From an uncultured Thermodesulfobacteriota bacterium (lineage in GTDB: Bacteria; Desulfobacterota; Zymogenia; Zymogenales; Zymogenaceae): DNA of 58,889 nucleotides. Location: assembly GCA_964542895.1 (NCBI GenBank), contig CAZIWT010000005.1, positions 863 to 59,751 on the forward strand, read 5' to 3'. How positions within the stretch are numbered: the stretch's first letter is position 1; each line of letters begins with the position of its first letter. A program made the position numbers and the translations under genes. Below the pieces are notes generated by a model, which saw nothing but the letters and a program-made list of their open reading frames with translations, had not been told where the DNA came from and did no database searches. Below, piece after piece: positions 10,308 through 53,182 of the stretch.

Positions 10308-10778
10308 CTAATCCACCACCACGAAGTGCTCGATGTCGACGATCTTTCCCTCGCGCTTCTCCTTGAAGATAGCCTTTACCCTTGCCCCGACCTTTACCTT
10401 CGACTCGTCTTTGATCTCCACGAAGTGCTGGAAGCAGGTGTCGGCGCCGTCGAGCTTTATGAAGGCGTATCCGTAAGGAACAGGCTTTTCCTTTCCTGTC
10501 TCCGGATCGAGGAAGGCAAAGCGCAGGATCGTGTAGCTGTAGAGGACTCCCTCGTCTGCCACCTCCACCCACTCGTCCATCTCGGTGAAACATGGCCCGC
10601 AGAGCTTTCTCGGCGGGATGTATACCTTTTTACATTTAGGGCACCTGACGCCCATGAATTTCTTGTTGTCGCGGATCTCCGCCAGAAATCTGCTGCCGAA
10701 TTCTCCGACCGCGTAGCTGAAGGGTTGTTCACCCTCGCCGGAGTGCATCGTCAAGAGGTCGACTCCTTGGCCGCCCAT
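10308..10778 (-). CDS. DUF35 family Zn-ribbon/OB-fold protein (ChsH2/BbsA-like acyl-CoA-binding partner)
   Basis: RCPKC...PPRKLCGPC Zn ribbon, then an OB fold (EGVLYSYTI...YAFIKLDGAD...VGARVKAIF). Confidence 0.93.
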   Translation of the reverse strand: MGGQGVDLLTMHSGEGEQPFSYAVGEFGSRFLAEIRDNKKFMGVRCPKCKKVYIPPRKLCGPCFTEMDEWVEVADEGVLYSYTILRFAFLDPETGKEKPVPYGYAFIKLDGADTCFQHFVEIKDESKVKVGARVKAIFKEKREGKIVDIEHFVVVD

Positions 10779-10796
10779 AAAAGACCTCCTCTCTAT

Positions 10797-11954
10797 TTAC
10801 GGTTTCGTACTTCTAAAAACTGTGACGTCGCTCCAGAAACAGCCGCCGAATCCGGTGGCGAGGGCCGTCTTCACGTCCGGGACCTGCCTGGCCCCGCCCT
10901 TGCCCATGATCTGGATTGCGGCCTCGGCCATCCTGAGGAGGGCCGTCGCCCCGATGCAGTTTGTGGCGATTACCCCTCCCGACGGATTTATCGGAAGCTC
11001 GCCGTCCATATCCGTTTTGCCGTCGGCGATCAATTTCGGCGCCCCCCCGGGCTTACAGAGGTCCATCGCCTCTATCCAGGATAGGCCCGCGTATGAGTAG
11101 GGGAGGTAGAGCTCCATGACGTCGATCTCCTTTAACGGCTCCTTGATTCCCGCCTTCTGGTACGCCTCCTTCGCCGCAAGCTGCATGGAGGGGAGGTTGA
11201 CCAGGTCGGTGTCGCCCAGAAGGTTGTACGGATGTTTTACCGCGCCCGCGTGAAACCAGGCCGGCTTAGGGCATATCTTTTCGGCGTATTCCTCCGTGGC
11301 GTAGACCACTGCGCACGCCCCGTCGGTCCTGGGGCATACGTCCAGAAGCTTGATGGGGTCCGACAGCATAGGGGAGCTCATGACGTCCTCAACGGTGATC
11401 TCCTTTCTGAGCTGGGCGTAGGGGTTGTTGCAGGCGTGCTTCCTGTCCCTTACGGCAACCCTCGCGGCGTCCTCCTCGGTGGCGCCGTACGTATCGAGGT
11501 ACAGCATCGCCTCGACGGCAAGCCCGCCGATGGCGCCTGCGAATACCAGCCTATCCCAGATCGGGTCGAAGGCCGTAGTGATGGCGGCGGTCGTGTCCGA
11601 CTCGGAGTTTTTCTCCCAGCCGACCGCCAGGACCTTGTCGAACATCCCCGAGGCGGTAAGGTAATAGCCCGCCTGGCCCACCGTGGAGCCGGTGGTACCG
11701 CCGGTGGTGAGTTTGAAGACCGGCTTCATAAATCCGCCGATCCCGTCGATGCTCCACATGTCGACATAGTTGATCCCCTCGAAGTGGTCCATGTTTCCTA
11801 TGACTATAGCGTCGATATCGTCGATGGTCAGATCGCCGTCCTCCAGGCAGCGATCCACGGCCTCGTTGATCATCTCTATTCCATTCACGTCCAGACGGCT
11901 CGATCGGTGATGGGTCTGGCCCGTGGCTACTATTGCAGTTCTTTTCTTACCCAT
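10797..11954 (-). CDS. Thiolase-fold protein of SCP-x/Ltp type (Ltp3-like), lacking the nucleophilic Cys
   Basis: Start MGKKRTAIVATGQT behind GGGAGGT. Motifs NPYAQLR, DGACAVV, ELYLPYS, NPSGGVIATN; KLTTGGTTGST replaces the canonical ..CxSG. The ORF-track start 12419 overlaps the upstream gene and is spurious. Confidence 0.88.
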   Translation of the reverse strand: MGKKRTAIVATGQTHHRSSRLDVNGIEMINEAVDRCLEDGDLTIDDIDAIVIGNMDHFEGINYVDMWSIDGIGGFMKPVFKLTTGGTTGSTVGQAGYYLTASGMFDKVLAVGWEKNSESDTTAAITTAFDPIWDRLVFAGAIGGLAVEAMLYLDTYGATEEDAARVAVRDRKHACNNPYAQLRKEITVEDVMSSPMLSDPIKLLDVCPRTDGACAVVYATEEYAEKICPKPAWFHAGAVKHPYNLLGDTDLVNLPSMQLAAKEAYQKAGIKEPLKEIDVMELYLPYSYAGLSWIEAMDLCKPGGAPKLIADGKTDMDGELPINPSGGVIATNCIGATALLRMAEAAIQIMGKGGARQVPDVKTALATGFGGCFWSDVTVFRSTKP

Positions 11955-11959
11955 ATCGA

Positions 11960-13108
11960 TTACCTCCCTACTATCCAGACACAATGTGATTGGCCGCAGG
12001 CGCCGTTTATTCCGTGGGCGAGGGCCGTCTTGACTCCGTCGATCTGGTGCTCGCCGGCGTCGCCCCTGACCTGCAGGATCGCCTCGATAAGCCTTATCAT
12101 TCCCCCCGGCGTTACCGGGTGGCCGGAGAGGAGTCCCCCCGAGGGATTGACCGGCAGCTCTCCGTCCATCTCCGTTATCCCCTTGTCGATCAGCTTTCCG
12201 CCGCCGCCCGGCGGGCAGAAGGCGAGACCCTCGTACCACATAAGCTCCATGTACGAGAAGGCGTCGTAGACCTCGGCCACGTCGATCTCCTTCAACGGGT
12301 CTTCTATCCCCGCCATTCCGTACGCCTCCAGGGCCGCCTTGTCGAGGGCACTGGCGTCCGCCAGGTCCCTGTCTCCCAGGAAGTAGGCGTCGGCGGTGTA
12401 TGAAACCCCCTTGACCCATACCGGCTTCTTGGCCTTCTTGGCCTTTTCGCCCCCCGCAATTATTACGGCCGCCGCCGCATCGGATACCGGGGAGCAGTCG
12501 TACAGCTTCAAAGGGTCAGATATTATCTTGGAGTTGAGTACGTCGTCCACGCTGATATCAATGGCGATCTGGGCGTAGGGATTCTTGAGGGCGTTTTTGT
12601 GGTTTTTCACCGAAACCTTAGCGCACTGCTCCTCGGTGATGCCGTACTTGGCCATGTAGCGGCGCATCTGAAGCGCCGAGCTGTTCAGTGAATCGAGGCC
12701 GATGGGTCTCATGTATATGGGGTCGAAAATTGCGTTGGTGATGTAAACGTTGTCCGACTCGGAACCCTTTACGTGGGAGACGACGAGCGTGGTATCGTAG
12801 GTGCCGGATAGGATTCTCGACATCCCGTAGAATGAGGAGAAGGTTCCGTCCCCCTCCACCGCGGACATGTTCTTGGCAAGCCCGCCGCCGCAGGCGTCGT
12901 TCACCGCCATCGTCGAGATAGTTCGGCCGTCCCAGAAATCGTTGGATGTGGTAATGACGTTATCGATGTCGTCCATGGTCATGCCGGCGTCCTCCAGCGC
13001 CTTTTTGGTCGCCTCGTATACCATGTCCGCGAAGGTATCGCCGAGCTTGTTCCTCTCTATCTTTGTCTGGCCTACACCGACAAAGGCGATGTCATTAATC
13101 TCTGTCAT
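11960..13108 (-). CDS. Thiolase-fold protein of SCP-x/Ltp type (Ltp4-like), lacking the nucleophilic Cys
   Basis: IAFVGVGQT, SNDFWDGRT, SAVEGDG at the Cys position, EVYDAFSYMEL, NPSGGLLSGHP. Confidence 0.88.
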   Translation of the reverse strand: MTEINDIAFVGVGQTKIERNKLGDTFADMVYEATKKALEDAGMTMDDIDNVITTSNDFWDGRTISTMAVNDACGGGLAKNMSAVEGDGTFSSFYGMSRILSGTYDTTLVVSHVKGSESDNVYITNAIFDPIYMRPIGLDSLNSSALQMRRYMAKYGITEEQCAKVSVKNHKNALKNPYAQIAIDISVDDVLNSKIISDPLKLYDCSPVSDAAAAVIIAGGEKAKKAKKPVWVKGVSYTADAYFLGDRDLADASALDKAALEAYGMAGIEDPLKEIDVAEVYDAFSYMELMWYEGLAFCPPGGGGKLIDKGITEMDGELPVNPSGGLLSGHPVTPGGMIRLIEAILQVRGDAGEHQIDGVKTALAHGINGACGQSHCVWIVGR

Positions 13109-13119
13109 TTTTACCCTCG

Positions 13120-13578
13120 CTAAACAGGTTTAAAGTGCTTTATATCGAGTATATGCCCTTTTCTCTCCTTGTTGAAAACGGCCTTTACCCTCATGCCGAC
13201 CTTGATCTTTTCCGGGGGCACCTCGCCGATGAGGTGAACCAGCCCCGTGTCGGCTCCGTCGAGGAGAATGACCCCGATTATCTGGGGCGAATCCTGAGGG
13301 ATTAGGTCCGTTTTGTATCTGGCGATGGTGTAGGTCTGCAGGACGCCCTCGTCTTTGACCTCCGTCCACTCGTGGACAGGGACGAAGCAGTAGGTGCACG
13401 TCTTTTTCGGCGGCACAAAAACAAAGTCGCAGACGGGACACCTGGTGCCCCATATCTTCTGGTTCTCCTTTATCTCGGTGAGAAACCGGCTCCCCACCTC
13501 TCCAACTGACCAGGTATAGGGCACTTTTATCCTACTTTTATAGGCTATAAGCTCCTGGTCGCCCGCTTTTTGGGTCAT
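13120..13578 (-). CDS. DUF35 family Zn-ribbon/OB-fold protein (paralog of 10308-10778)
   Basis: RCPVC...PPKKTCTYC; shares VGE.GSRFL.EI and LDGAD with the downstream copy; ATG 13578 behind GGAGG. Confidence 0.93.
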   Translation of the reverse strand: MTQKAGDQELIAYKSRIKVPYTWSVGEVGSRFLTEIKENQKIWGTRCPVCDFVFVPPKKTCTYCFVPVHEWTEVKDEGVLQTYTIARYKTDLIPQDSPQIIGVILLDGADTGLVHLIGEVPPEKIKVGMRVKAVFNKERKGHILDIKHFKPV

Positions 13579-13684
13579 AATCAACCTCCGTAAATTCTAC
13601 AAAACTGTATTGGGTGTTATTATTACGTTTCCCATTAATCGACGATCATTGGACACCGTATTTCGTAAACGGGTTGGTTTAAGA

Positions 13685-39352: not shown

Positions 39353-40876
39353 CTACAGTCCCTTTTTCGTCTCTTCGAACGTGTCCTTTGAGCAGGCAAG
39401 CGCCGTGCCTATGGGGAGGACCTCGCCCGCCAGTCTTACCATCTCGGCGGACAGGTTCCTTATGTCCCACTGGGCCGTCCTGTCCATCCTGATCCTCGCG
39501 ATGTGGTAGAGCTCCCTGAGGTTTAAGGAGATAAGGGCCCTGAGCCTGTGGGCGTTGGTCAGGATGTAGGGTGCGGCCTGGGGCGATACCCCCCTTATCT
39601 TTTCGTATATGTCCCTTGTGCCTTCGGCGGCCCTCATAAAATCGTCCTTCAGGCCCGCCTCGACGATCGTCTCCGGGACTTCCACGCCGAGGTCGGGATC
39701 GTACTCCTGTCTTGTTATCGTCGCCATCCTGTGGCGCTTCAGCTGGGCGAAGCAGGAAGAGGAGACAACCGCCTCGAAGGTTAGGCCTATCGTCTCGAAC
39801 TCCCTCAGGGCGCGGTCGTAGGACTCCATGTATTTGAAGGAGGACTTGACTATCTCCTCGATTTTATCTTTTTCCATCCCCTTTATCGAGTTCAGGAGTG
39901 TTTCGTAGTCGAGGTCGGTCTGGGGAAAGACCAGCGCCGCGGCAAGGCGGGCGTCCCCGTCTTTTGTGTAATCGGCGAGCTTTAAGGGAGTATCTTCTAT
40001 CCCCTTGTCGCTCCGGCTGGTTTGTGAGTTTTTTGTGAACGACTTCCCTATCAGCTCTCTCGTCTTCGTGTCGTAGTCGGTCCCCTTGGCGTATTTTATA
40101 ACGGAGGGGGCGTGGGGGTAGAGGGCATCGTAGATCGTCTTGGAGAGCTCCCTCGCCTCGTTCAGCCCGCTTGCCGAGAGCCTTCTCATGGTCATCTCGA
40201 GGACCCTGGCGTTTGCGGTCATCCCCATCTGGGTCTGGGTGGCGAGGGGGACGATGTATCGTGCGTCCTCCTTGGCCCAGCCGTCGAGGGTGACCTTGCC
40301 CCTTTTATCTTTTGCGAGGTCAGGGTGTTTTTTGTGTATCATGGGGAGTAGCGCCTCGTAGAAGGTGTGGTACGTACCGTTTAGGCTTTCGACGGCGTTC
40401 CTGAAGGGGGTTTCGAGGCCCGCTTCGACCATCTCTTTCGGGATGACGTGATCGTCGGTCAGGGTTATGTACCTCTGCGATTTCTCGGTGTAGGAGGCGA
40501 GCCTCGTCCTCTGGAGCTCTTCGGTAACGAGCCTCGATATCCCGATGATGTCGAGGTTGAAGACGGCGTGCTCCGCCACCGACGAGTGTCCCATGCCGAA
40601 GATGATCGATTCGTTTGACCTTCTCGACGTCTCGACCTCCTTTAGGGCGTCGAGCCTTATCTCGTTTACCGGCCTGGGGTCCCTGCTTATGCGGGCGTAG
40701 GCCGCGCTGAAGGTCTCCGGAGTCAGCTCTTCCGAGGCCCCGAACCTGTCGAGGAAATCTGAAATCTCTTCACCGCTTCCACTTTTGATCCTTAAGGCCG
40801 CGCTTTTGTATTCGAACAGTCGCTCAACGTCAACGTTAAATCCGGAAAGAATGACCTTCATTTTAGTTTTACTCAT
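39353..40876 (-). CDS. thyX: Flavin-dependent thymidylate synthase, tandem two-domain form
   Basis: N-domain GHSSVAEH, SR, QRTRLASYTEKSQRY, EDARY; C-domain QLKRHRMAT, NLRELYH..R.R...AQWDIR. At 507 aa it is about twice the single-domain size. Confidence 0.9.
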   Translation of the reverse strand: MSKTKMKVILSGFNVDVERLFEYKSAALRIKSGSGEEISDFLDRFGASEELTPETFSAAYARISRDPRPVNEIRLDALKEVETSRRSNESIIFGMGHSSVAEHAVFNLDIIGISRLVTEELQRTRLASYTEKSQRYITLTDDHVIPKEMVEAGLETPFRNAVESLNGTYHTFYEALLPMIHKKHPDLAKDKRGKVTLDGWAKEDARYIVPLATQTQMGMTANARVLEMTMRRLSASGLNEARELSKTIYDALYPHAPSVIKYAKGTDYDTKTRELIGKSFTKNSQTSRSDKGIEDTPLKLADYTKDGDARLAAALVFPQTDLDYETLLNSIKGMEKDKIEEIVKSSFKYMESYDRALREFETIGLTFEAVVSSSCFAQLKRHRMATITRQEYDPDLGVEVPETIVEAGLKDDFMRAAEGTRDIYEKIRGVSPQAAPYILTNAHRLRALISLNLRELYHIARIRMDRTAQWDIRNLSAEMVRLAGEVLPIGTALACSKDTFEETKKGL

Positions 40877-44075: not shown

Positions 44076-44398
44076 CGGGGATTCCGAAAGCCTTTAAAAA
44101 CGTTTTAGTCTGCGGTTAAGGTCGAATTGGGAAAAACCGTAAAGCCGCTTAATAAGTCTATTTCAAGGCGTTTTTCGGGTCAAGCTTAAAAGGTCGGTCA
44201 GGGATATTTTCCGCCTTGATAAGATCGAGGGATGAGTGTTACGGTCCGCGGTTTTGGCCGGGCGCCCTTTCTTGATGTCCGTGGGGTTTTGGATGCTTGG
44301 TCGATAAAAAAGTCCACGTCGACGGGCCCTTCAATATGGACGGTTTTCCAATTCAGGGTATTATTGGTGATCGCTTCCTTGCTCCCCGCCCGAATTAT

Positions 44399-44773
44399 TC
44401 AGGCTTTCTTGGAGCCGGCCCTTTTCAGGATATAGGCTGTCAGGTAAAGGGCGAAGACGATGATGAGATATATCATCAGGTAATAGAGCGCCCCCTCGAT
44501 CTGGCCCATGACCTTGAAGTTAAGGGCGGTTGGGTTGTTTACGAGGGATTCGTACCTGTAATTGCAGCCGTAGAATTTCCGGGATATCCCCCCGACGAGG
44601 ACCGCGGCTATGGCGGTGAGCTTGATCATAGTTGCGAGACGCTTCGGGTTGACGGGGATGGATACCGAGGAGAGCACATCCTCGACGTTCCTTAAGACTA
44701 AAAGAGTCAGTATAACGCCGACCGCGGTTGCGGCGATAAGCCCCGAAACGTAATATATGAGAACGGTGTTCAT
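44399..44773 (-). CDS. Small 3-TM membrane protein
   Basis: Three hydrophobic segments; shows patterned similarity to 45055-45402. Confidence 0.7.
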   Translation of the reverse strand: MNTVLIYYVSGLIAATAVGVILTLLVLRNVEDVLSSVSIPVNPKRLATMIKLTAIAAVLVGGISRKFYGCNYRYESLVNNPTALNFKVMGQIEGALYYLMIYLIIVFALYLTAYILKRAGSKKA

Positions 44774-45054
44774 TTAGTGGCCCTTTTTGGGTCGATGGGC
44801 ATGGGGGGTTTTTCATACGTTTTGTCGGCCCAAATGTCCGGCATATGGGCCATAGCCTGCAGCCCTATCCCCCTGGAGTCCGTAAAGATTTACCTCTCCC
44901 TTTATCTTGAAGCCCGATAAGAAGTCCTTTCAAATCGATTATCTATGCTGGACAAGGTCAAACGATAACCTAAAAATCCAATCCTACCCCTGCCTTTAGA
45001 AAAAAGCCCCTTGGTGCGCGTGTTTGGAAGGTCGCTCGAGGCTCTCCCGGCGGG

Positions 45055-45402
45055 TTACTTTTTCTTTGCGCCGATTGCCCACCCGATGAGGAGAGCGGAA
45101 AAGAGAATAAGAAACACCCATAGGAGCCGAAAGAGCATAGCCTCGAGCTGATCCACCACGGCCCAGACGAGGACGAGCTGATCTTGTTTGGCGCTTTCCG
45201 GATAGGTTTCGGACAAGGCCCCGGAGACCGATGCCAGCATTACAACGGTGTAGATTATCTTCGCCCAAAATTTTTGTACCTGTGATTCGGAAAAAAGAGT
45301 GCCGATGAAGGATTTTAAGCCACCCCTGAATATAATACAGAGGAGGATGCCGAGGATTACGGATATTGCGGCTACGGTCAGATAAATGCAGAAGATGTTC
45401 AT
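45055..45402 (-). CDS. Small 3-TM membrane protein
   Basis: GGAG RBS; three hydrophobic segments and a basic C-terminus. Confidence 0.72.
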   Translation of the reverse strand: MNIFCIYLTVAAISVILGILLCIIFRGGLKSFIGTLFSESQVQKFWAKIIYTVVMLASVSGALSETYPESAKQDQLVLVWAVVDQLEAMLFRLLWVFLILFSALLIGWAIGAKKK

Positions 45403-45610
45403 TTTTTTATCTCCAATTTATATCTCGAATGGATTTGAACGAGGTGCAAAATTACGAAGCCCGGCGGATATTTTAGATTCAATTGTTTAAACGACCCCGG
45501 GATTCTGAAATCTTCCTCTGTTGGAATAAAAATAGATTTCGCAGTTGTAGAGCGGATCTGCGGGGGAAACGGGGCCGCTGTTTAAATGGCGGGAGAGCTT
45601 GAGGGAAAAC

Positions 45611-45808
45611 CTAATCCATGAATATCTTCCTGCTCTCGGAGAAATCAATCCCGAGGGCGGTCAGGATTTTCCTCTTTGTCTCCATCCGGCAGCTCTTCCC
45701 CTTCTCGATGCGGTCGACGGTAAGCACGCTGACGCCCGCCTGTCTGGCCAGCTCAGATTTGCTCAGAAGCATCTGTTCCCTTATTTCTGTCAACGTATTC
45801 TTAGCCAT
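45611..45808 (-). CDS. Small XRE/Cro-type helix-turn-helix protein
   Basis: IREQMLLSKSELARQAGVSVLTVDRIEKG is an HTH_3 pattern; GGAGAG RBS. Confidence 0.88.
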   Translation of the reverse strand: MAKNTLTEIREQMLLSKSELARQAGVSVLTVDRIEKGKSCRMETKRKILTALGIDFSESRKIFMD

Positions 45809-46010
45809 CTCTCCATCCGATTCCTGATTGTAAATTTGCTTTGTAAAAATGCATCTCTCGGAGTCTTATAGAGTCTTATGGGATTTTCACCCCACCTGTT
45901 TGTTGTGGCCTCTAAAATACCCGTAAAAAACAACGAAAAACCTGGATTCCCGCAAACGACTAAAACCGAAACAAACAATCGTCCGTGGACTTAAAGGTAT
46001 AATTCCTCTG

Positions 46011-46418
46011 TTAGTATTCCACAACGGGAGGGAGGTCCTTCGCCTGATCGATCCAATTGGCCACGCTCTTCTCCGAGGGGAGCCTCCTTACGAGGTTCTT
46101 CTTCTCGTTTGTCTCTTTGATCTGCCGATAGAGGTTATCCGCCCTCCTGTTTCTGAGCTCCTTTACAGTGTCGACGCCCGCTTCCTCCAGGAGGTCGGAG
46201 TACTCCTCCGCCACACCCTTTATCCTCATCAGGTCGGCAAGATTTACCCACTCGAGGATCAGCTTGTGTCCGATGCCCGTGGAGTCTTCCAGCTCTTTTC
46301 TTCCCCTTGGGGTTTTGCCCCGTTCGAGAAGCTGGTTGGTGTTCGTAATTCCAACATCGTTGAGCTTTCCCTTGTAAACGTCTCCGATTCCCTCTATATC
46401 TTTAATCGGGTATCCCAT
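46011..46418 (-). CDS. DUF4332 helix-hairpin-helix domain protein
   Basis: IKDIEGIG...L...GI, ADLMRIKGVAEEYSDLLEEAGVDTVKELRNRRADNL. Confidence 0.88.
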   Translation of the reverse strand: MGYPIKDIEGIGDVYKGKLNDVGITNTNQLLERGKTPRGRKELEDSTGIGHKLILEWVNLADLMRIKGVAEEYSDLLEEAGVDTVKELRNRRADNLYRQIKETNEKKNLVRRLPSEKSVANWIDQAKDLPPVVEY

Positions 46419-47346
46419 GTTTGGCTCCTATAAAGTTTAAAAAATCTGTGTTAAAATTCCAAATTTTGATATTGATTCCGTCAATCTATAAATGCCGGCT
46501 ACACGCTTCATCACAGTGGGTAGATGGAAGAAAATCTCGGGGTCCGCATTTAAATCGAGGAGCTTTTTCGGCCCGCTGTTGAGTTTGTAAAGATGAAAGC
46601 CCCTTTTGTCTTCAACTTATCGAAAAACCTTGCAGTGAAGGTCTAAACACCCCCTTGGCAAGAAGCCCTTTTCAACAAGTATACTTTCTGGCGCGCTGTC
46701 GAATTTTTTTCTTGCTTCCGCCGTTTCCAGAGATAGTTTTATTAGTATAATAGAGTTATCAATTTAATTTAATTATTTATAAAAGTCAAGTAATTTTATA
46801 AAATTGTACGCTTTTTTTATAATATTTTCTTATTTTTTCCTCTCGGTGTGGCTCTGTTTGGATATCGACACCTTTTCGGGGCGGTTTAAGCGATTTCTCG
46901 GCCGAGGTGATATCGAATAAGGCCAAAAGCAATAGGGCGTATCTTGTATAATTGAGTGCCACAAAAAAAAACAGAGATTGACCGCCGTATCTCCTTCGCT
47001 CTTGGTCTTTTAAGGGCGCACATCAGCGACTATGAACGATTTGGGCACTGTTTTTCTTCACACAACCGCTGTCACTTGCATTTTTTACACAAGAATTATG
47101 TGTTCAGCTTTGAAATCCTCCAAGCGGCGACGGTTTGAATACAAGAAGAGGGCTCGCAGTTGGATCGACGGCGTTCCTATCCGTCAACGCCTTTAGTCCG
47201 ATCGACGTTTTCAGAAACAAGCTTTTCGAGCTTTATATTCCCTGCATCCTGTCGGGGCTCCCGGCGGCATTACAAAAGGCGCGTCCGCTTAAAAACCCCT
47301 CCCGCATATATAGACTTCGATCTTGAGCGCAATCTCCTCCCCCCGT

Positions 47347-49740
47347 CTACTCCTTCGGCTCAAGTTCGAGGGTGTACCTGGCGTCTTTGTCCACCCTATC
47401 GCGGCTCAACACGAACGGGCGGTATTTGTGGTCGATCCAAAGCTCCGTCTGGTCGTCGTAGTGGGTGCTCATGAAGTTTCCGGAGACGCCGTTGGGGGTC
47501 ACCATCTTGGAGTTGTTCATATCCGAGAGGTCGATGATGTATCTCAAAGACGCGCCGTGATAGACCTCCCACGGGTCCGTCAGCCGGTACGTAGCGGGAT
47601 TGACCGTAAAAAGACTTCCCCCCATGGGAAGCGGGCCGATGTTGAAGAGTTTCCCCATGAGGGCCGACTTCTTCCCGAAGGGGTGGTAGATGGTAAGCGT
47701 GTGGAGGTCGCCCCAGGCCCAGTCGTCGATGTCGGGTCCCATCTCCGATTCGAGGTAGCTCACGGCGTCCTTGAAGCTCATGGTGATGACGAAATCGATA
47801 TCTTCTATCTCCTCCGTCTCAGGGTCGTCAAACCAAGGTGATTTACCCCTCTTGAACATTTTCCTCAGGGAGTTGAAGACGAGGTACTTGTTGCCGATGT
47901 ACATGGTGTAGAGCTCTTCACCGAGCCTGTTTTTGAACGTCCTCTCGACGATGCCGTTTGCGGTCGCGTGAAAGACGCTCGCGGCGCGGCTCTCCGGTGT
48001 GGCGACGAAGTCCCAATCTTTAAGGAGCTCGAGGGCGGCCGCTTCCCGCTCCGACAATTCGGCGCCGGACAGGGCTTCGATCATGGTCGGCACCCAGTCC
48101 CGCGCGAGGACCACGTATGTGTCACCCTGCATCTTCGCGAAGTCGTCGGCGTTAAGCTTATCCTTTTCGGTCAGCATCTCCGTTATCCGTATGTACCTGT
48201 CCGGGGAGGCGTAACCGTTCGATATGATGTAGGGGTAGCCGTCTTTCTCGATCCGGTTGTTGGCCGTGGCTATCCAGCCGGAGGGCGGGTTTATCAGCTT
48301 GGGCTGTTCTCCCTTTGGAACGTATCCCGCCCACTCGTGTTTCCCGTCCCAGCCGGGAACCGGAACGGAGCCGTCAAATCCACTCCTTATTGGGATTCCC
48401 GCCACAAGCCAGTAGCCGATGTTCCCCTGGTCGTCCGCGCAGACGAGGTTTATGCCGGGGCACTGGAAAAGCTCCACCCATTTGTCGAAATCGTTGACGG
48501 TCTTCGCCCTGTTTACGTAATAGAGGGACGTTATGGCCTGGGCCCTTTCGGGAGCCACCCAGCGCATCGAGAGGGCGTATCCCTTCGGCTCGTCGAACTT
48601 GTTCAGGTCGTCGATGATCGGGCCGTGGCGCGTCATTCGGATATTGAAATTGACGTCGTCCGCACCCTTGACCTTTATCGTCTCTTCCCTTGTTTTTATT
48701 TCCTCCCAACTTCCCATGTAGAGGCAGCGGTTCGGGTCTTCGGGGTCAAGCTTTTCGAGGTAGTAATCGGAGTCGTCCACCATCCCCACGGTGCCGCCCC
48801 AGGCGCAGTTTCCGTTCGTCCCGGCGAAGACAAAGGGGATTCCCGGGAGCATGGCACCTGTGACGTTTAGGGTCGGTGTCGTTATGTGTGCCTCGTACCA
48901 GACCCCCGGGGCGCCGTGGGCCACGTGCGGGTCGTTTGCGAGGATCGGTTTTCCGGTCTCTGATTTTACTCCGGAGACAGCCCAGTTGTTGCTGGCGCCC
49001 CCTCCCACGCGGCCCGTGATTTCACGGGCGAGGTTCAGGGTCTTTAAAAAATCGATATTTTTACCCACGCTTAAGGGGGGTTTGTTTCCAATGATTGTCG
49101 GGCCGTTTTCCGGGTAGGCCGAAAAAATCTCGTCTGTAAGCTCCTTCCCCAGCTTGTCGGCTATGGTGGCCCTCAACATCTCCGTCTTGAACGTCCCGTT
49201 AAACTGCCACGCCAGAAAGTAATAGACGCTGACGCAGTCTTCGGGCCTCCACGGATCCGGCTTATACCCCAGCATCTTGAACTCGACGGGAAGGGGGCCG
49301 TCCCCGTTTTCGATGTAGTAGTTTATCCCCTTCGAAAAGGCCTCGAGAGAGGAGAGGACCTCGGGGGGGAACTCCCCGACGATATCCTTTTGGGCCCTCG
49401 GGGCGGTGAGTGTCCTGAAGAGCTTGTCCACCGACACCACCGACTCCCCCAGGAGCTCCGAGAGCCTGCCGGAGGTAACCCGCCTTATAAGGTCCAGCTG
49501 GAAGAGCCTGTCCTGGGCCATCGAGTAGCCGAGAGCGAAGTACGCGTCGCCGTCCGAATCGGCGTAGATATGGGGCATTCCGTAGCTGTCCCGGATGATC
49601 GTGACTTTGGAGTCTATTCCGTCGACGACCACCTCTCCCTCATAGCCGGGGAGCGTCGCCCTCAGGTAACCGTAAATGAAAATTACAGCTATGATAAGAA
49701 TGACAAAGACTGTTCCTAAGATCCACTTAATAACCTTCAT
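47347..49740 (-). CDS. Penicillin acylase family (peptidase S45) Ntn amidase, membrane-anchored
   Basis: RDSYGMPHIYA, AQDRLFQLD..RR, autocleavage site GGGA/SNNWAVSG, LANDPH, TANNR; N-terminal TM helix. Confidence 0.95.
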   Translation of the reverse strand: MKVIKWILGTVFVILIIAVIFIYGYLRATLPGYEGEVVVDGIDSKVTIIRDSYGMPHIYADSDGDAYFALGYSMAQDRLFQLDLIRRVTSGRLSELLGESVVSVDKLFRTLTAPRAQKDIVGEFPPEVLSSLEAFSKGINYYIENGDGPLPVEFKMLGYKPDPWRPEDCVSVYYFLAWQFNGTFKTEMLRATIADKLGKELTDEIFSAYPENGPTIIGNKPPLSVGKNIDFLKTLNLAREITGRVGGGASNNWAVSGVKSETGKPILANDPHVAHGAPGVWYEAHITTPTLNVTGAMLPGIPFVFAGTNGNCAWGGTVGMVDDSDYYLEKLDPEDPNRCLYMGSWEEIKTREETIKVKGADDVNFNIRMTRHGPIIDDLNKFDEPKGYALSMRWVAPERAQAITSLYYVNRAKTVNDFDKWVELFQCPGINLVCADDQGNIGYWLVAGIPIRSGFDGSVPVPGWDGKHEWAGYVPKGEQPKLINPPSGWIATANNRIEKDGYPYIISNGYASPDRYIRITEMLTEKDKLNADDFAKMQGDTYVVLARDWVPTMIEALSGAELSEREAAALELLKDWDFVATPESRAASVFHATANGIVERTFKNRLGEELYTMYIGNKYLVFNSLRKMFKRGKSPWFDDPETEEIEDIDFVITMSFKDAVSYLESEMGPDIDDWAWGDLHTLTIYHPFGKKSALMGKLFNIGPLPMGGSLFTVNPATYRLTDPWEVYHGASLRYIIDLSDMNNSKMVTPNGVSGNFMSTHYDDQTELWIDHKYRPFVLSRDRVDKDARYTLELEPKE

Positions 49741-50757: not shown

Positions 50758-51219
50758 CTATTTGCTGTTTTGTTTCATCTCTGCTTCGCAGCTTATTAGG
50801 TTGTCGAGGATTTTTCGGAGCTTATCCTCCAAGTCGTCCAACTCCTCTTCCGAAAGGCCCCTGCACACGATATCAGTCATCTCTTCGGAGACTTTGGCAT
50901 AGGTATCCATTAGGTTATGGTCTTTCTCGGTAAGCTTGATGAGGACCTCGCGACGGTCGCTTTTTGAACGGATTCGCTTAATATGCCCCGCTCTCTCCAG
51001 CCCGTCCAACATAGCCGTCAGCGTTGACTTGCTGAGGGAGGTTTCCTTGGCAAGTTGTTGGATGGGGATGTTGTCTTTGCGCCATAAAACGAAGAGTATC
51101 CTTCCCTGGGCGGGGGTGATGTGGCCGATTTTGTGTTCTCTGAGGATATTCGCAAAAATCCGACCCGCTGCCTGGTTTATCCTGGCGATCAGAAATGCAC
51201 CCTCTCGTTTCAACTTCAC
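50758..51219 (-). CDS. MarR family transcriptional regulator
   Basis: ITPAQGRILFVLW, LAKETSLSKSTLTAMLDGLE..G.I.R..S..DRR...I.LT. Confidence 0.95.
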   Translation of the reverse strand: MKLKREGAFLIARINQAAGRIFANILREHKIGHITPAQGRILFVLWRKDNIPIQQLAKETSLSKSTLTAMLDGLERAGHIKRIRSKSDRREVLIKLTEKDHNLMDTYAKVSEEMTDIVCRGLSEEELDDLEDKLRKILDNLISCEAEMKQNSK

Positions 51220-51479
51220 TTCCTAATCCAAATTTTAAAATTACTTTGAATCATTCTACGATAAAAGAGTATATATGTTCTAATTCGTATTGTACTATAT
51301 AGAACCATATTGAATAATACTATTCCTTTCAAAATGTTTGTCAAGCATTAATCAAGCTGTCTTATTTTTTTAGAATTTGAGCTGTCGAAGTGATAGCCTT
51401 TCGATTTAAGAAAATCGATCGCATCAGATTTGGATTTTCTCTCCTCCGTCTCGAATCATCGATAGCCTTCTCTCCATCC

Positions 51480-52847
51480 TTATCCAATCTTCTTCTGGAG
51501 CGAGCGCGCCGCCACGAGTATCGGGTCGATGGTGGGCGTGAACGGCGGTGCGTATGCGAGGTCGAGGTCTACAATATCGTCGATAGAGAGGTTTCCGGCA
51601 AGCGCCGCCGCCAGGATGTTTATGCGGTGGCCGGCTCCGTCTTTGCCCGCGATCTGGGCGCCGATGAGCCTTCGGGTCTTTCTCTCCGCAACGAGGTGCA
51701 CGCGAATCGGGGAAGAGCCGGGATACAGCCTGGGCCGTGACCTCCCCTCGATAGTCTGGCATACGGCGTCGATCCCCTCCTTCTGGGCGGCGGCAAGCGT
51801 AAGTCCCGTGAATCCGACCTCGAGGTCGAACACCTTGAAGTGGGCGGAGCCCAAAACTCCGGGATAGACTATATCTCCCCCGGCGGCGTTCTCCCCGGCG
51901 ACCCACCCCTGCTTGTTGGCGAGGTCCCCGAGGGCTATGTTCACACCCCTTGACGTGATACGGTGCTTCACCTCGACGCAGTCGCCCGCGGCGTAGATGT
52001 TGTCGTCCGACGTACGCTGGCGATCGTCGACCCATATCGCCCCGGTCTCGCCGATTTCGAGGCCCGCCTCCTTAGCCAGCCTGACGTCGGGCAAAAAACC
52101 CACCGAGACGAGGACCATCTCCGCATCAAATCTACCCTTGTCGGTTACGACCGACGTGACCTTGCCGTTTGAGACGTCAAAGGAGGAGATCTTGGCGTCG
52201 GTAACGAACTTAGTCTCCTTCTCGGCAAGCTCGTCCAGGACCATCTCCGCAATATCTTTTCCGAGCTGCCTCATCGGGAGGTCTCTGCGGTGGATGATGG
52301 TGTTTTCTATCCCCAGCTCTCCGAAGGCCTCGGCCATCTCCAGGGAGATAAAGCCCGCCCCGATCGTCACGGCCCTCCTGGGGGAGTTCTCGTTTATATA
52401 GTCTTTTATCCTCTTGCCGTCCGAGAGGGATTTCAGGGAAAAGACGTTGGGGGCGTCCTCGTTTTCGACGCCGAGTTTCCTGGAGTGGGAACCAGTGGTG
52501 ATTATCAGCTTGTCGTAGGGCCTCTTCAGCTCCTCGTTCTTATCGAGGTCGCGGATCAGTATTTCCCTCTTCTTCCTGTTGATATTGATGACTTCATGTT
52601 TCGTGTGGATGTCGATATCGTGGTCTTTCTTGAAGACCTCGGGGGGCCTGACGACGTATTTATCTATGACCTTTGACTTGGCTACATCTCCGATGTAGTA
52701 GGGCATGAGTCAGGCGGAATAGGAGATATATGAATCCTTCTCGAAGAGGTCTATCTTCAGGTTTCGATCGGTCCTGCGGGCGCGGCTGGCGGCTGCGGTT
52801 CCGGCCGCAACGCCACCGCAGATCAGGAGGCCGTTTTGATCTTTCAT
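51480..52847 (-). CDS. CoA-disulfide reductase / NADH oxidase family flavoprotein; predicted selenoprotein (Sec46 encoded by TGA 52710-52712)
   Basis: ATG 52847 behind GGGAG reads MKDQNGLLICGGVAAGTAAASRARRTDRNLKIDLFEKDSYISYSA-TGA-LMPYY, in frame with the 408-aa ORF. The TGA aligns to the Cys of the family motif SY/FxxCGLPY. Also present: LIITTGS, IGAGFISLE, IYAAGDC, DLAYAPPF. Confidence 0.9.
52674..52712 (-). promoter_or_regulatory. Candidate bacterial SECIS element
   Basis: mRNA UGA-11 nt-CUACAUC-GGA-GAUGUAG: a 7-bp perfect stem with a G-leading apical loop. UGACU can also pair with downstream AGUCA as a lower stem. Confidence 0.8.
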
Positions 52848-52892
52848 TTTCAACTTCTCCCAAGCGTTTTGTAATGTTTCAGATCGATTTCT

Positions 52893-52921
52893 ATTATCAG
52901 TGGGGAAGGGTAAAATGTCAA
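52893..52921 (-). promoter_or_regulatory. Sigma70 promoter of the CoADR-like gene
   Basis: TTGACA-17 nt-GATAAT, about 45 nt upstream of ATG 52847. This supports the extended start. Confidence 0.7.
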
Positions 52922-52952
52922 GGCCTTAAAAATCAAAAGGGCCAAAATGAGC

Positions 52953-52979
52953 GGGGAGAGGGGGAGAGGGGGAGGGGGG
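52953..52979 (+). other. Canonical G-quadruplex-forming motif
   Basis: GGGG-AGA-GGGGG-AGA-GGGGG-A-GGGGGG. Confidence 0.6.
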
Positions 52980-53182
52980 CGATCTTCGATCCGCAGCTGG
53001 ATATCTTTTATATCAGTTTTGGTCTCGGCATTTTCCGGGGGGGCTTTTTGAAGATGAGCCGAAAAACCTATTGGTGGAGGATTTAACAATCCAGATCGAC
53101 GTAGGGCCGGCGATAAAACTCGAGGTCCTGGAAAATGGAGGTCTCCAATTTCACTTAAGGATGAGGAGTCGTTTTACCCTAT

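Follow-up and report, generated by a model that had tools for sequence, protein, structure and literature searches.

A predicted selenocysteine at the catalytic cysteine position of a CoA-disulfide reductase-like flavoenzyme from an uncultured Thermodesulfobacteriota bacterium

A reverse-strand gene in a 58,889-nt stretch of DNA from an uncultured Thermodesulfobacteriota bacterium (contig CAZIWT010000005.1; the whole stretch is called the window hereafter, and coordinates refer to it) appears to encode a selenoprotein. We propose that this is one gene for a 455-residue flavoenzyme in which selenocysteine (Sec46), specified by an in-frame UGA at 52712-52710, replaces the catalytic cysteine, a reading to which we assign a probability of about 0.88 on the comparisons presented below. 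The rival explanations, namely a pseudogene, a split gene, an assembly error or a reassigned code, are unlikely because the TGA and a hairpin that follows it are conserved, the region upstream of the TGA is coding, the hairpin is lost in cysteine forms, and TGA is otherwise used as a normal stop. The class of selenoprotein is already known, and the window gene is a new, well-supported member of it. An initial annotation, made without database searches, had called the gene a 455-residue selenoenzyme with Sec46; the alignment with cysteine homologues, the joint retention of TGA and hairpin in relatives, and the loss of the hairpin in a cysteine variant all support that proposal.

The gene starts 45 codons upstream of the TGA

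The open reading frame (ORF) called by pipelines covers 51480..52706 on the reverse strand; it has 408 codons and begins with MPYY. Upstream of it and in the same frame, 45 codons run from an ATG at 52847 to the TGA that terminates them (MKDQNGLLICGGVAAGTAAA...YISYSA, then TGA, then LMPYY; full translation of the 45 codons, MKDQNGLLICGGVAAGTAAASRARRTDRNLKIDLFEKDSYISYSA). These codons supply the GGVAAG glycine motif, and FAD (flavin adenine dinucleotide) binding would therefore be impossible without them. Of the 11 related loci that were read, 10 have the start methionine 45 codons ahead of the TGA; the remaining one (L026) is cut at its 5' end. A GGGAG/GGGGG block is conserved at the ribosome-binding site in the alignment of relatives, and L018 and L020 share the -35 and -10 boxes even though their flanking sequences have diverged. 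The misplaced start at MPYY, the true start with its GGVAAG-containing codons, the promoter and the ribosome-binding site had all been pointed out in the initial annotation, and each was recovered on re-reading (Table 1). Just 5' of the promoter, at 52940-52990 of the reverse strand, there is a C/CT-rich tract (cgcccccctccccctctccccctctccccgctc); L018 has a comparable CT-rich stretch.

Database entries for the nearest relatives (64-89% identity) all describe proteins of 407-409 residues that start with MPYY. In their DNA, the same 45-codon ORF is followed by the TGA and then by the long ORF. The prediction that pipelines would miscall the gene thus proved correct: NCBI and other sources list the N-truncated form, in one NCBI record under the name 'FAD-dependent oxidoreductase'.

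The in-frame UGA falls on the catalytic cysteine of a flavoprotein family

Domain, family and structure searches were made with the 455-residue read-through product, in which cysteine was put in place of Sec. The Pfam domains Pyr_redox_2, Pyr_redox and Pyr_redox_dim were recognised. The top NCBIfam match was the CoA-disulfide reductase (CoADR) model TIGR03385 (2.3e-127, residues 7-447), which outscored the model for streptococcal NADH oxidase (425 versus 242 bits). The TIGR03385 score of 425.4 is, however, below the curated equivalog cut-off of 578.8, and the scores for the other CoADR equivalogs are also below theirs (389.5 versus 458 for NF007123, 278.1 versus 394 for NF010037); the product is therefore not a CoADR equivalog. 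Residues 7-449 align to solved structures with E = 1e-84 to 7e-92, including Thermus NADH oxidase (6ruz, the best match at 7e-92), Archaeoglobus NoxA-3 (6pfz) and Pyrococcus CoADR (3kd9 and 4fx9), and from these matches the fold of the protein appears certain enough. The alignments cover NADH peroxidase, NADH oxidase and CoADR chains, and the product has the architecture of this group (Nox/Npx/CoADR), with a single redox residue about 40-46 residues from the N-terminus.

In the printed alignments, the UGA falls on the catalytic cysteine (vSYgAC-glPY) of 6ruz, 6pfz and 3kd9, where the initial annotation had expected it; it also aligns with the TGT or TGC codons of L008, L002, L011-L013 and L016. 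Database sources name the cysteine relatives 'CoA-dependent NAD(P)H sulfur oxidoreductase'. The best explanation of these matches is that the protein belongs to the FAD-dependent pyridine-nucleotide oxidoreductases with a single redox centre, the group of CoA-disulfide reductase, NAD(P)H sulfur oxidoreductase and NADH oxidase. The more precise substrates named at first (CoA disulfide, persulfide, O2 or peroxide) were overstated; placement in a CoADR-type family stands, and the scores remain under the curated CoADR cut-offs.

The TGA is conserved, and the reading frame is maintained on both sides of it

The TGA was retained in 10 of 10 non-redundant relatives (63-88% nucleotide identity). A second clade made of L028, L029 and L030 (about 51-54% protein identity; 51% between the L028 product and the window) has a TGA at the same site. 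An identical protein is encoded in four loci from different samples, all of which show the TGA and the 45 + 408 split. An assembly or sequencing error hiding a true TGC or TGT codon has nothing specific in its favour and is extremely improbable: the identical TGA is present in contigs from four sources (JGI 3300029258, JGI 3300029267, ENA ERZ27256770 and Logan SRR6963311) and in all the diverged relatives, and the sole true TGT variant, L008, differs in the hairpin as well.

The median ratio of nonsynonymous to synonymous substitution rates (dN/dS) was 0.129 over codons 1-45, compared with 0.128 over the remaining codons; the upstream 45 codons are under the same purifying selection as the others. 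Apart from the TGA, no frame disruption was found in the gene. These results bear on the possibility that a nonsense mutation has turned an ordinary cysteine-type CoADR-like gene into a pseudogene. In its favour, gene callers do give separate ORFs of 45 and 408 residues, and no sel genes were found in the window or in the fetched loci (see below). Against this, over 10 lineages with nucleotide differences of 12-37% have retained the TGA, as has the second clade; purifying selection is equal on either side of it; there are no further disruptions of the frame; and conservation extends to the promoter and the start codon. A pseudogene is thus very unlikely. The check on relatives proposed in the initial annotation gave the same answer, as the 10 relatives and the second clade have kept the TGA and the hairpin.

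A hairpin with fixed synonymous sites follows the UGA

The initial annotation had described a perfect hairpin, CUACAUC-GGA-GAUGUAG, at a distance of exactly 11 nt from the UGA, and re-reading confirmed its place. The loop begins 18 nt past the UGA, and the stem-loop encodes Y50-Y51-I52-G53-D54-V55-A56. Of the 1738 TGA trinucleotides of the window, just 6 are followed at a permitted distance by a hairpin with 7 perfect pairs and a G in its loop, and among these 6 the target alone is in a coding frame. The consensus for a bacterial Sec insertion sequence (SECIS) has a loop of 3-9 nt, a stem of 4-16 bp, a G in the first two loop positions and a distance of 16-37 nt from the UGA (PMC13188914). The 3-nt GGA loop, the 7-bp stem and the 18 nt from UGA to loop lie within these limits, and the same geometry is observed in all Sec relatives.

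The stem is identical in all 10 lineages, and the RNAalifold consensus keeps this 7-bp helix only. We compared the stem codons with 208 alignment columns, drawn from ten genes, in which the amino acid is invariant and its codon degenerate. A single codon is used in 21 of these 208 columns (10%) versus all five stem codons (P = 7e-6), namely TAC for Y50 and Y51, ATC for I52, GAT for D54 and GTA for V55. GTA is rare among the valine codons of these genes (12% usage), yet it is invariant at V55. Codons 50-55 form the window of lowest synonymous diversity in the whole gene. The loop codon G53 (GGA or GGT) varies, as do the flanking codons L47, P49 and A56. Across both clades, the third base of the loop takes all four values and the two leading G's are fixed. 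In the second clade the hairpin is UAUUACAUC-GG[G/C]-GAUGUAAUA, with a stem of 8-9 bp and a loop that likewise starts 18 nt from the UGA; the outermost C-G pair of the window hairpin has become U-A there, a compensatory change.

The hairpin also bears on a split-gene model, in which termination at the UGA would be followed by re-initiation at the ATG at 52706 (M48), the 45-residue peptide and the 408-residue protein then associating non-covalently. The window and most members of its clade do have an ATG two codons past the TGA, but it is absent from L001 (LLPYY) and from L028-L030 (SEPYY, DEPYY), all of which have kept the TGA and the hairpin. The break would, in addition, delete precisely the catalytic residue, and the frozen synonymous sites of the hairpin would be left unexplained. 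We consider such a split gene highly improbable.

Two additional pairings were considered and rejected as conserved elements. A lower stem made of UGACU and AGUCA, suggested in the initial annotation, can form in the window (AGUCA at 52678-52674) and is present in L001 and L018; it is broken in L010, L020 and L021 and absent from the RNAalifold consensus, so that the pairing stands for the window but not for its relatives. An alternative pairing of GAUGUA (52682-52687) with a downstream UACGUC (52653-52658, reverse strand; codons Y64-V65) is impossible in L028-L030 and leaves the frozen 5' arm of the hairpin unexplained. In one subclade, folding of individual sequences favours the pairing of GAUGUA with UAC(A/G)UC, which probably arises as a side effect of recurring Tyr-Ile/Val codons.

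Cysteine forms and tryptophan entries

L008 carries TGT instead of TGA and is nested within a Sec subclade at 84-90% identity. In this locus, codon 55 has changed from GTA to ATC (V55I), and no hairpin folds. Within the zone permitted for the hairpin, stems do not exceed 3-5 bp in five distant cysteine loci. L008 (cysteine, TGT) and L009 (Sec, TGA), which are 88% identical, coexist in metagenome Ga0272441.

Two full-length database relatives, P0039 and P0127, have a tryptophan at the position of the catalytic Cys/Sec (SAWSLPFYIGDV, GAWETPYYIGDV). This W probably comes from a TGA translated with code 4 by gene callers, in which case the two entries would be further hidden Sec forms. They can also be taken as a sign of read-through without selenium, in which near-cognate suppression or a reassigned code would place Trp, Cys or Gly at the UGA, the hairpin just slowing termination. 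UGA-C is a leaky stop context, and the UGA of the window is followed by C. The base after the UGA is C throughout the window's clade and A or G in the second clade; this +4 base is therefore not a conserved part of the signal. Several observations argue against selenium-free decoding. TGA serves as an ordinary stop in the window and is the most frequent one, ending 16 of 39 genes. The position is that of the one redox cysteine, for which Sec is the sole known functional substitute, and with a tryptophan in its place the known chemistry would very probably be lost. The hairpin has the size and spacing of SelB-dependent elements (PMC8659212, PMC13188914), and the W entries are most simply accounted for by code-4 gene callers. 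Read-through without selenium thus seems unlikely.

In a rough neighbour-joining tree without support values, the Sec forms and the W entries lie at the base of several cysteine sub-branches of one subfamily. Such an arrangement suggests that the Sec state is old and has repeatedly given way to cysteine, with L008 as a recent example. Cysteine forms of the CGLPY type are mostly outside the Sec-bearing subfamily, as judged from the proteins that were read and from the same rough tree.

Points that weigh against selenocysteine

Several results count against a Sec46 reading. No selA, selB, selD or tRNA-Sec was found in the 58.9-kb window or in any of the fetched loci. The hairpin alone has a free energy of -5.8 kcal/mol, weaker than the published SECIS criterion of -7.5 kcal/mol or lower (PMC13188914); the 66-nt local fold reaches -11.4 kcal/mol, a value that depends on the lower stem that relatives do not conserve. 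The fold of the 71-nt region was no more stable than that of shuffled sequences (z = -0.14); the evidence provided by the single sequence is therefore the geometry and the position of the hairpin, not its fold energy. A scan of 52500-52900 against Rfam, with E values up to 10, returned no SECIS family and only chance microRNA-like matches. Covariation is limited to one event, the stem being nearly invariant, and the hairpin has no bulged U. The stem overlaps the conserved peptide YYIGDV, which is also found in a few cysteine forms (P0015, P0031).

The closest database records are metagenome-assembled genomes (MAGs) of Thermodesulfobacteriota or 'Deltaproteobacteria', and the deltaproteobacterial group has by far the most selenoproteins (PMC1794560). 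Competence of the host for Sec insertion is inferred from this apparent lineage, because it is rich in selenoproteins.

Relation to known selenoproteins and to SECIS elements

A selenoprotein family called 'NADH oxidase' was among the bacterial families catalogued in 2006, with one member, from Geobacter metallireducens (PMC1794560), and one copy was reported in the Olavius delta-1 symbiont (PMC1976440). The family is described as FAD-dependent oxidoreductase/CoADR/NADH oxidase, with WP_011365774.1 of G. metallireducens as its representative (PMC1794560, PMC9312934, PMC13188914); its first prediction is credited to Kryukov and Gladyshev 2004. The suspicion voiced in the initial annotation that the class might not be new was thus justified.

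Like the catalogued family, the window protein belongs to the same superfamily with the same best model (TIGR03385), has Sec at the N-terminal redox cysteine position ahead of a conserved Pro-Tyr, comes from an apparent deltaproteobacterial-type anaerobe, and is known from sequence only. The local motif differs: it is UGxP in the catalogue (PMC13188914), whereas it is ULMP in the window and ULLP, USEP or UDEP in its relatives, the proline being kept but not the glycine. Judged by its catalogue description, WP_011365774.1 may represent the same Sec lineage as the window protein or a separate one. With a U-[LSD]-x-P motif, at least two Sec clades and the two W entries, the present set extends somewhat beyond the catalogue. 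We put forward, tentatively and with some doubt, that the window gene belongs to an undescribed and fairly deep Sec-bearing CoADR-like subfamily, distinct from the G. metallireducens UGxP representative; its signature would be U-x-x-P-Y-[YF]-I-G-D-V, with a minimal 17-nt SECIS within the YYIGDV codons and with Sec perhaps ancestral and repeatedly replaced by cysteine.

Compared with the cysteine-type CoADR and NADH oxidase structures (6ruz, 6pfz, 3kd9, 4fx9), the window protein shares the FAD, NAD and dimerisation domains and the catalytic position, but has a predicted Sec for Cys and scores under the CoADR cut-offs.

The E. coli minimal SECIS measures 17 nt and is placed 11 nt from the UGA (PMC8659212). 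The window hairpin resembles that of E. coli fdhF in being a 17-nt stem-loop 11 nt past the UGA, within the coding sequence (CDS), with a G that opens the loop (PMC8659212). It differs from it by the lack of the bulged U17, by a 3-nt GGN loop in place of the G23/U24 loop, and by a perfect 7-bp stem with no conserved lower helix. The label 'textbook SECIS' used in the initial annotation therefore holds for the minimal E. coli dimensions and not for the absence of the bulged U, the GGN triloop, the unconserved lower stem or the energy of the hairpin.

Animal thioredoxin reductase, another flavoprotein from this broad superfamily, employs Sec for redox catalysis. Its Sec lies in a C-terminal GCUG fed by an N-terminal CxxxxC pair, and its SECIS is in the 3' untranslated region, whereas in the window protein Sec would replace the flavin-proximal residue itself and the SECIS would be inside the CDS. 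No experimental work on a Sec form of the Nox/Npx/CoADR group was found in the literature searched.

Proposed mechanism and function

In the mechanism that we propose, the gene would be transcribed from the promoter at 52921-52893 and translated from the ATG at 52847. When the UGA enters the ribosomal A site, the 17-nt hairpin 11 nt downstream would sit at the mRNA entrance and could offer its GGN loop to SelB·GTP·Sec-tRNA(Sec), so that Sec would be inserted in place of termination. The folded enzyme would then have Sec46 where the cysteine of its homologues faces the flavin. NAD(P)H would reduce FAD, and FAD would in turn reduce either a selenenylsulfide between Sec46 and a sulfur-bound substrate (Sec46-S-substrate) or a Sec46 selenenic acid. 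Physiologically, the enzyme would likely reduce a low-molecular-weight disulfide, persulfide or polysulfide (CoA-linked), or serve in defence against O2 or peroxide in an anaerobe.

Genomic context and other features of the window

Coordinates of the gene, of its signals and of the neighbouring regulator gene are given in Table 1. A MarR-family regulator gene lies downstream and a resistance-nodulation-division (RND) efflux operon upstream in both the window and L018; the MarR-family neighbour is found in L018/L019, and another subclade has an NAD(P)H-flavin reductase (Flavodoxin_2/FMN_red) upstream. An NCBIfam search of the genes next to the relatives' loci was uninformative, the MarR-family regulator of the window being the exception. 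In assembly GCA_016929395.1, an 89% identical orthologue sits in the same gene order. This context is compatible with a role in redox stress or detoxification, with no proof of it. No other selenoprotein gene and no sel gene was found in the window by a read-through ORF scan, a scan for hairpins after TGA, Pfam scans of 40 ORFs, or ARAGORN.

Table 1. Features of the predicted Sec46 locus and its downstream neighbour, in window coordinates.
Feature	Position	Strand	Remarks
Complete CDS, predicted 455-residue flavoprotein	51480..52847	-	ATG at 52847, predicted Sec at codon 46, TAA stop at 51482-51480
Sigma-70-like promoter, TTGACA-17-GATAAT	52921..52893	-	-35 at 52921-52916, 17-nt spacer, -10 at 52898-52893; 11/12 matches
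Ribosome-binding site, GGGAG	52857..52861	-	9 nt 5' of the ATG at 52847; read from the sequence
GGVAAG dinucleotide (FAD)-binding glycine motif, codons 11-16	52800..52817	-	in the product only with the start at 52847
In-frame UGA, predicted Sec46	52712-52710	-	position of the single redox-active Cys
Predicted SECIS hairpin, CUACAUC-GGA-GAUGUAG	52698-52682	-	7 bp, 3-nt loop; begins 11 nt past the UGA
MarR-family regulator gene	50758..51219	-	about 260 nt downstream, same strand; own promoter-like site at 51344..51317

Synteny with the 89%-identical locus L018 breaks downstream of an amidohydrolase gene (47347-49740 in the window, 12846-14588 in L018), where the window has a penicillin-amidase-family gene and L018 an AcnX-type aconitase pair. 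At 39353-40876 (reverse strand), a 507-residue protein has two matches to Thy1 (ThyX-type thymidylate synthase) and is about twice the usual length; L018 has a 502-residue counterpart. The region 44100-47300 has a G+C content of 0.49, compared with about 0.55 elsewhere, and contains few recognisable genes, with a DUF4332 protein and small ORFs without Pfam matches. A two-gene unit that encodes a DUF35/ChsH2-type OB-fold protein and a thiolase-like protein is duplicated in tandem at 10308-13584 (reverse strand). The ORFs 10797..12419 and 11960..13108 share about 460 nt, read in different frames; the start of the former is therefore probably over-extended.

Significance

The gene is ordinary in kind; it is a clean and well-supported case, whose practical value is for annotation. 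Public records contain truncated proteins devoid of both the FAD-binding start and the catalytic residue, and an intact redox enzyme is therefore overlooked when function or metabolism is deduced from these MAGs. With its 17-nt hairpin inside a conserved peptide, the gene offers a compact case of a dual constraint, by coding and by RNA structure. The natural Sec/Cys pair formed by L009 and L008 would be a clean system to study the benefit of selenium at a flavin-coupled single-thiol redox centre.

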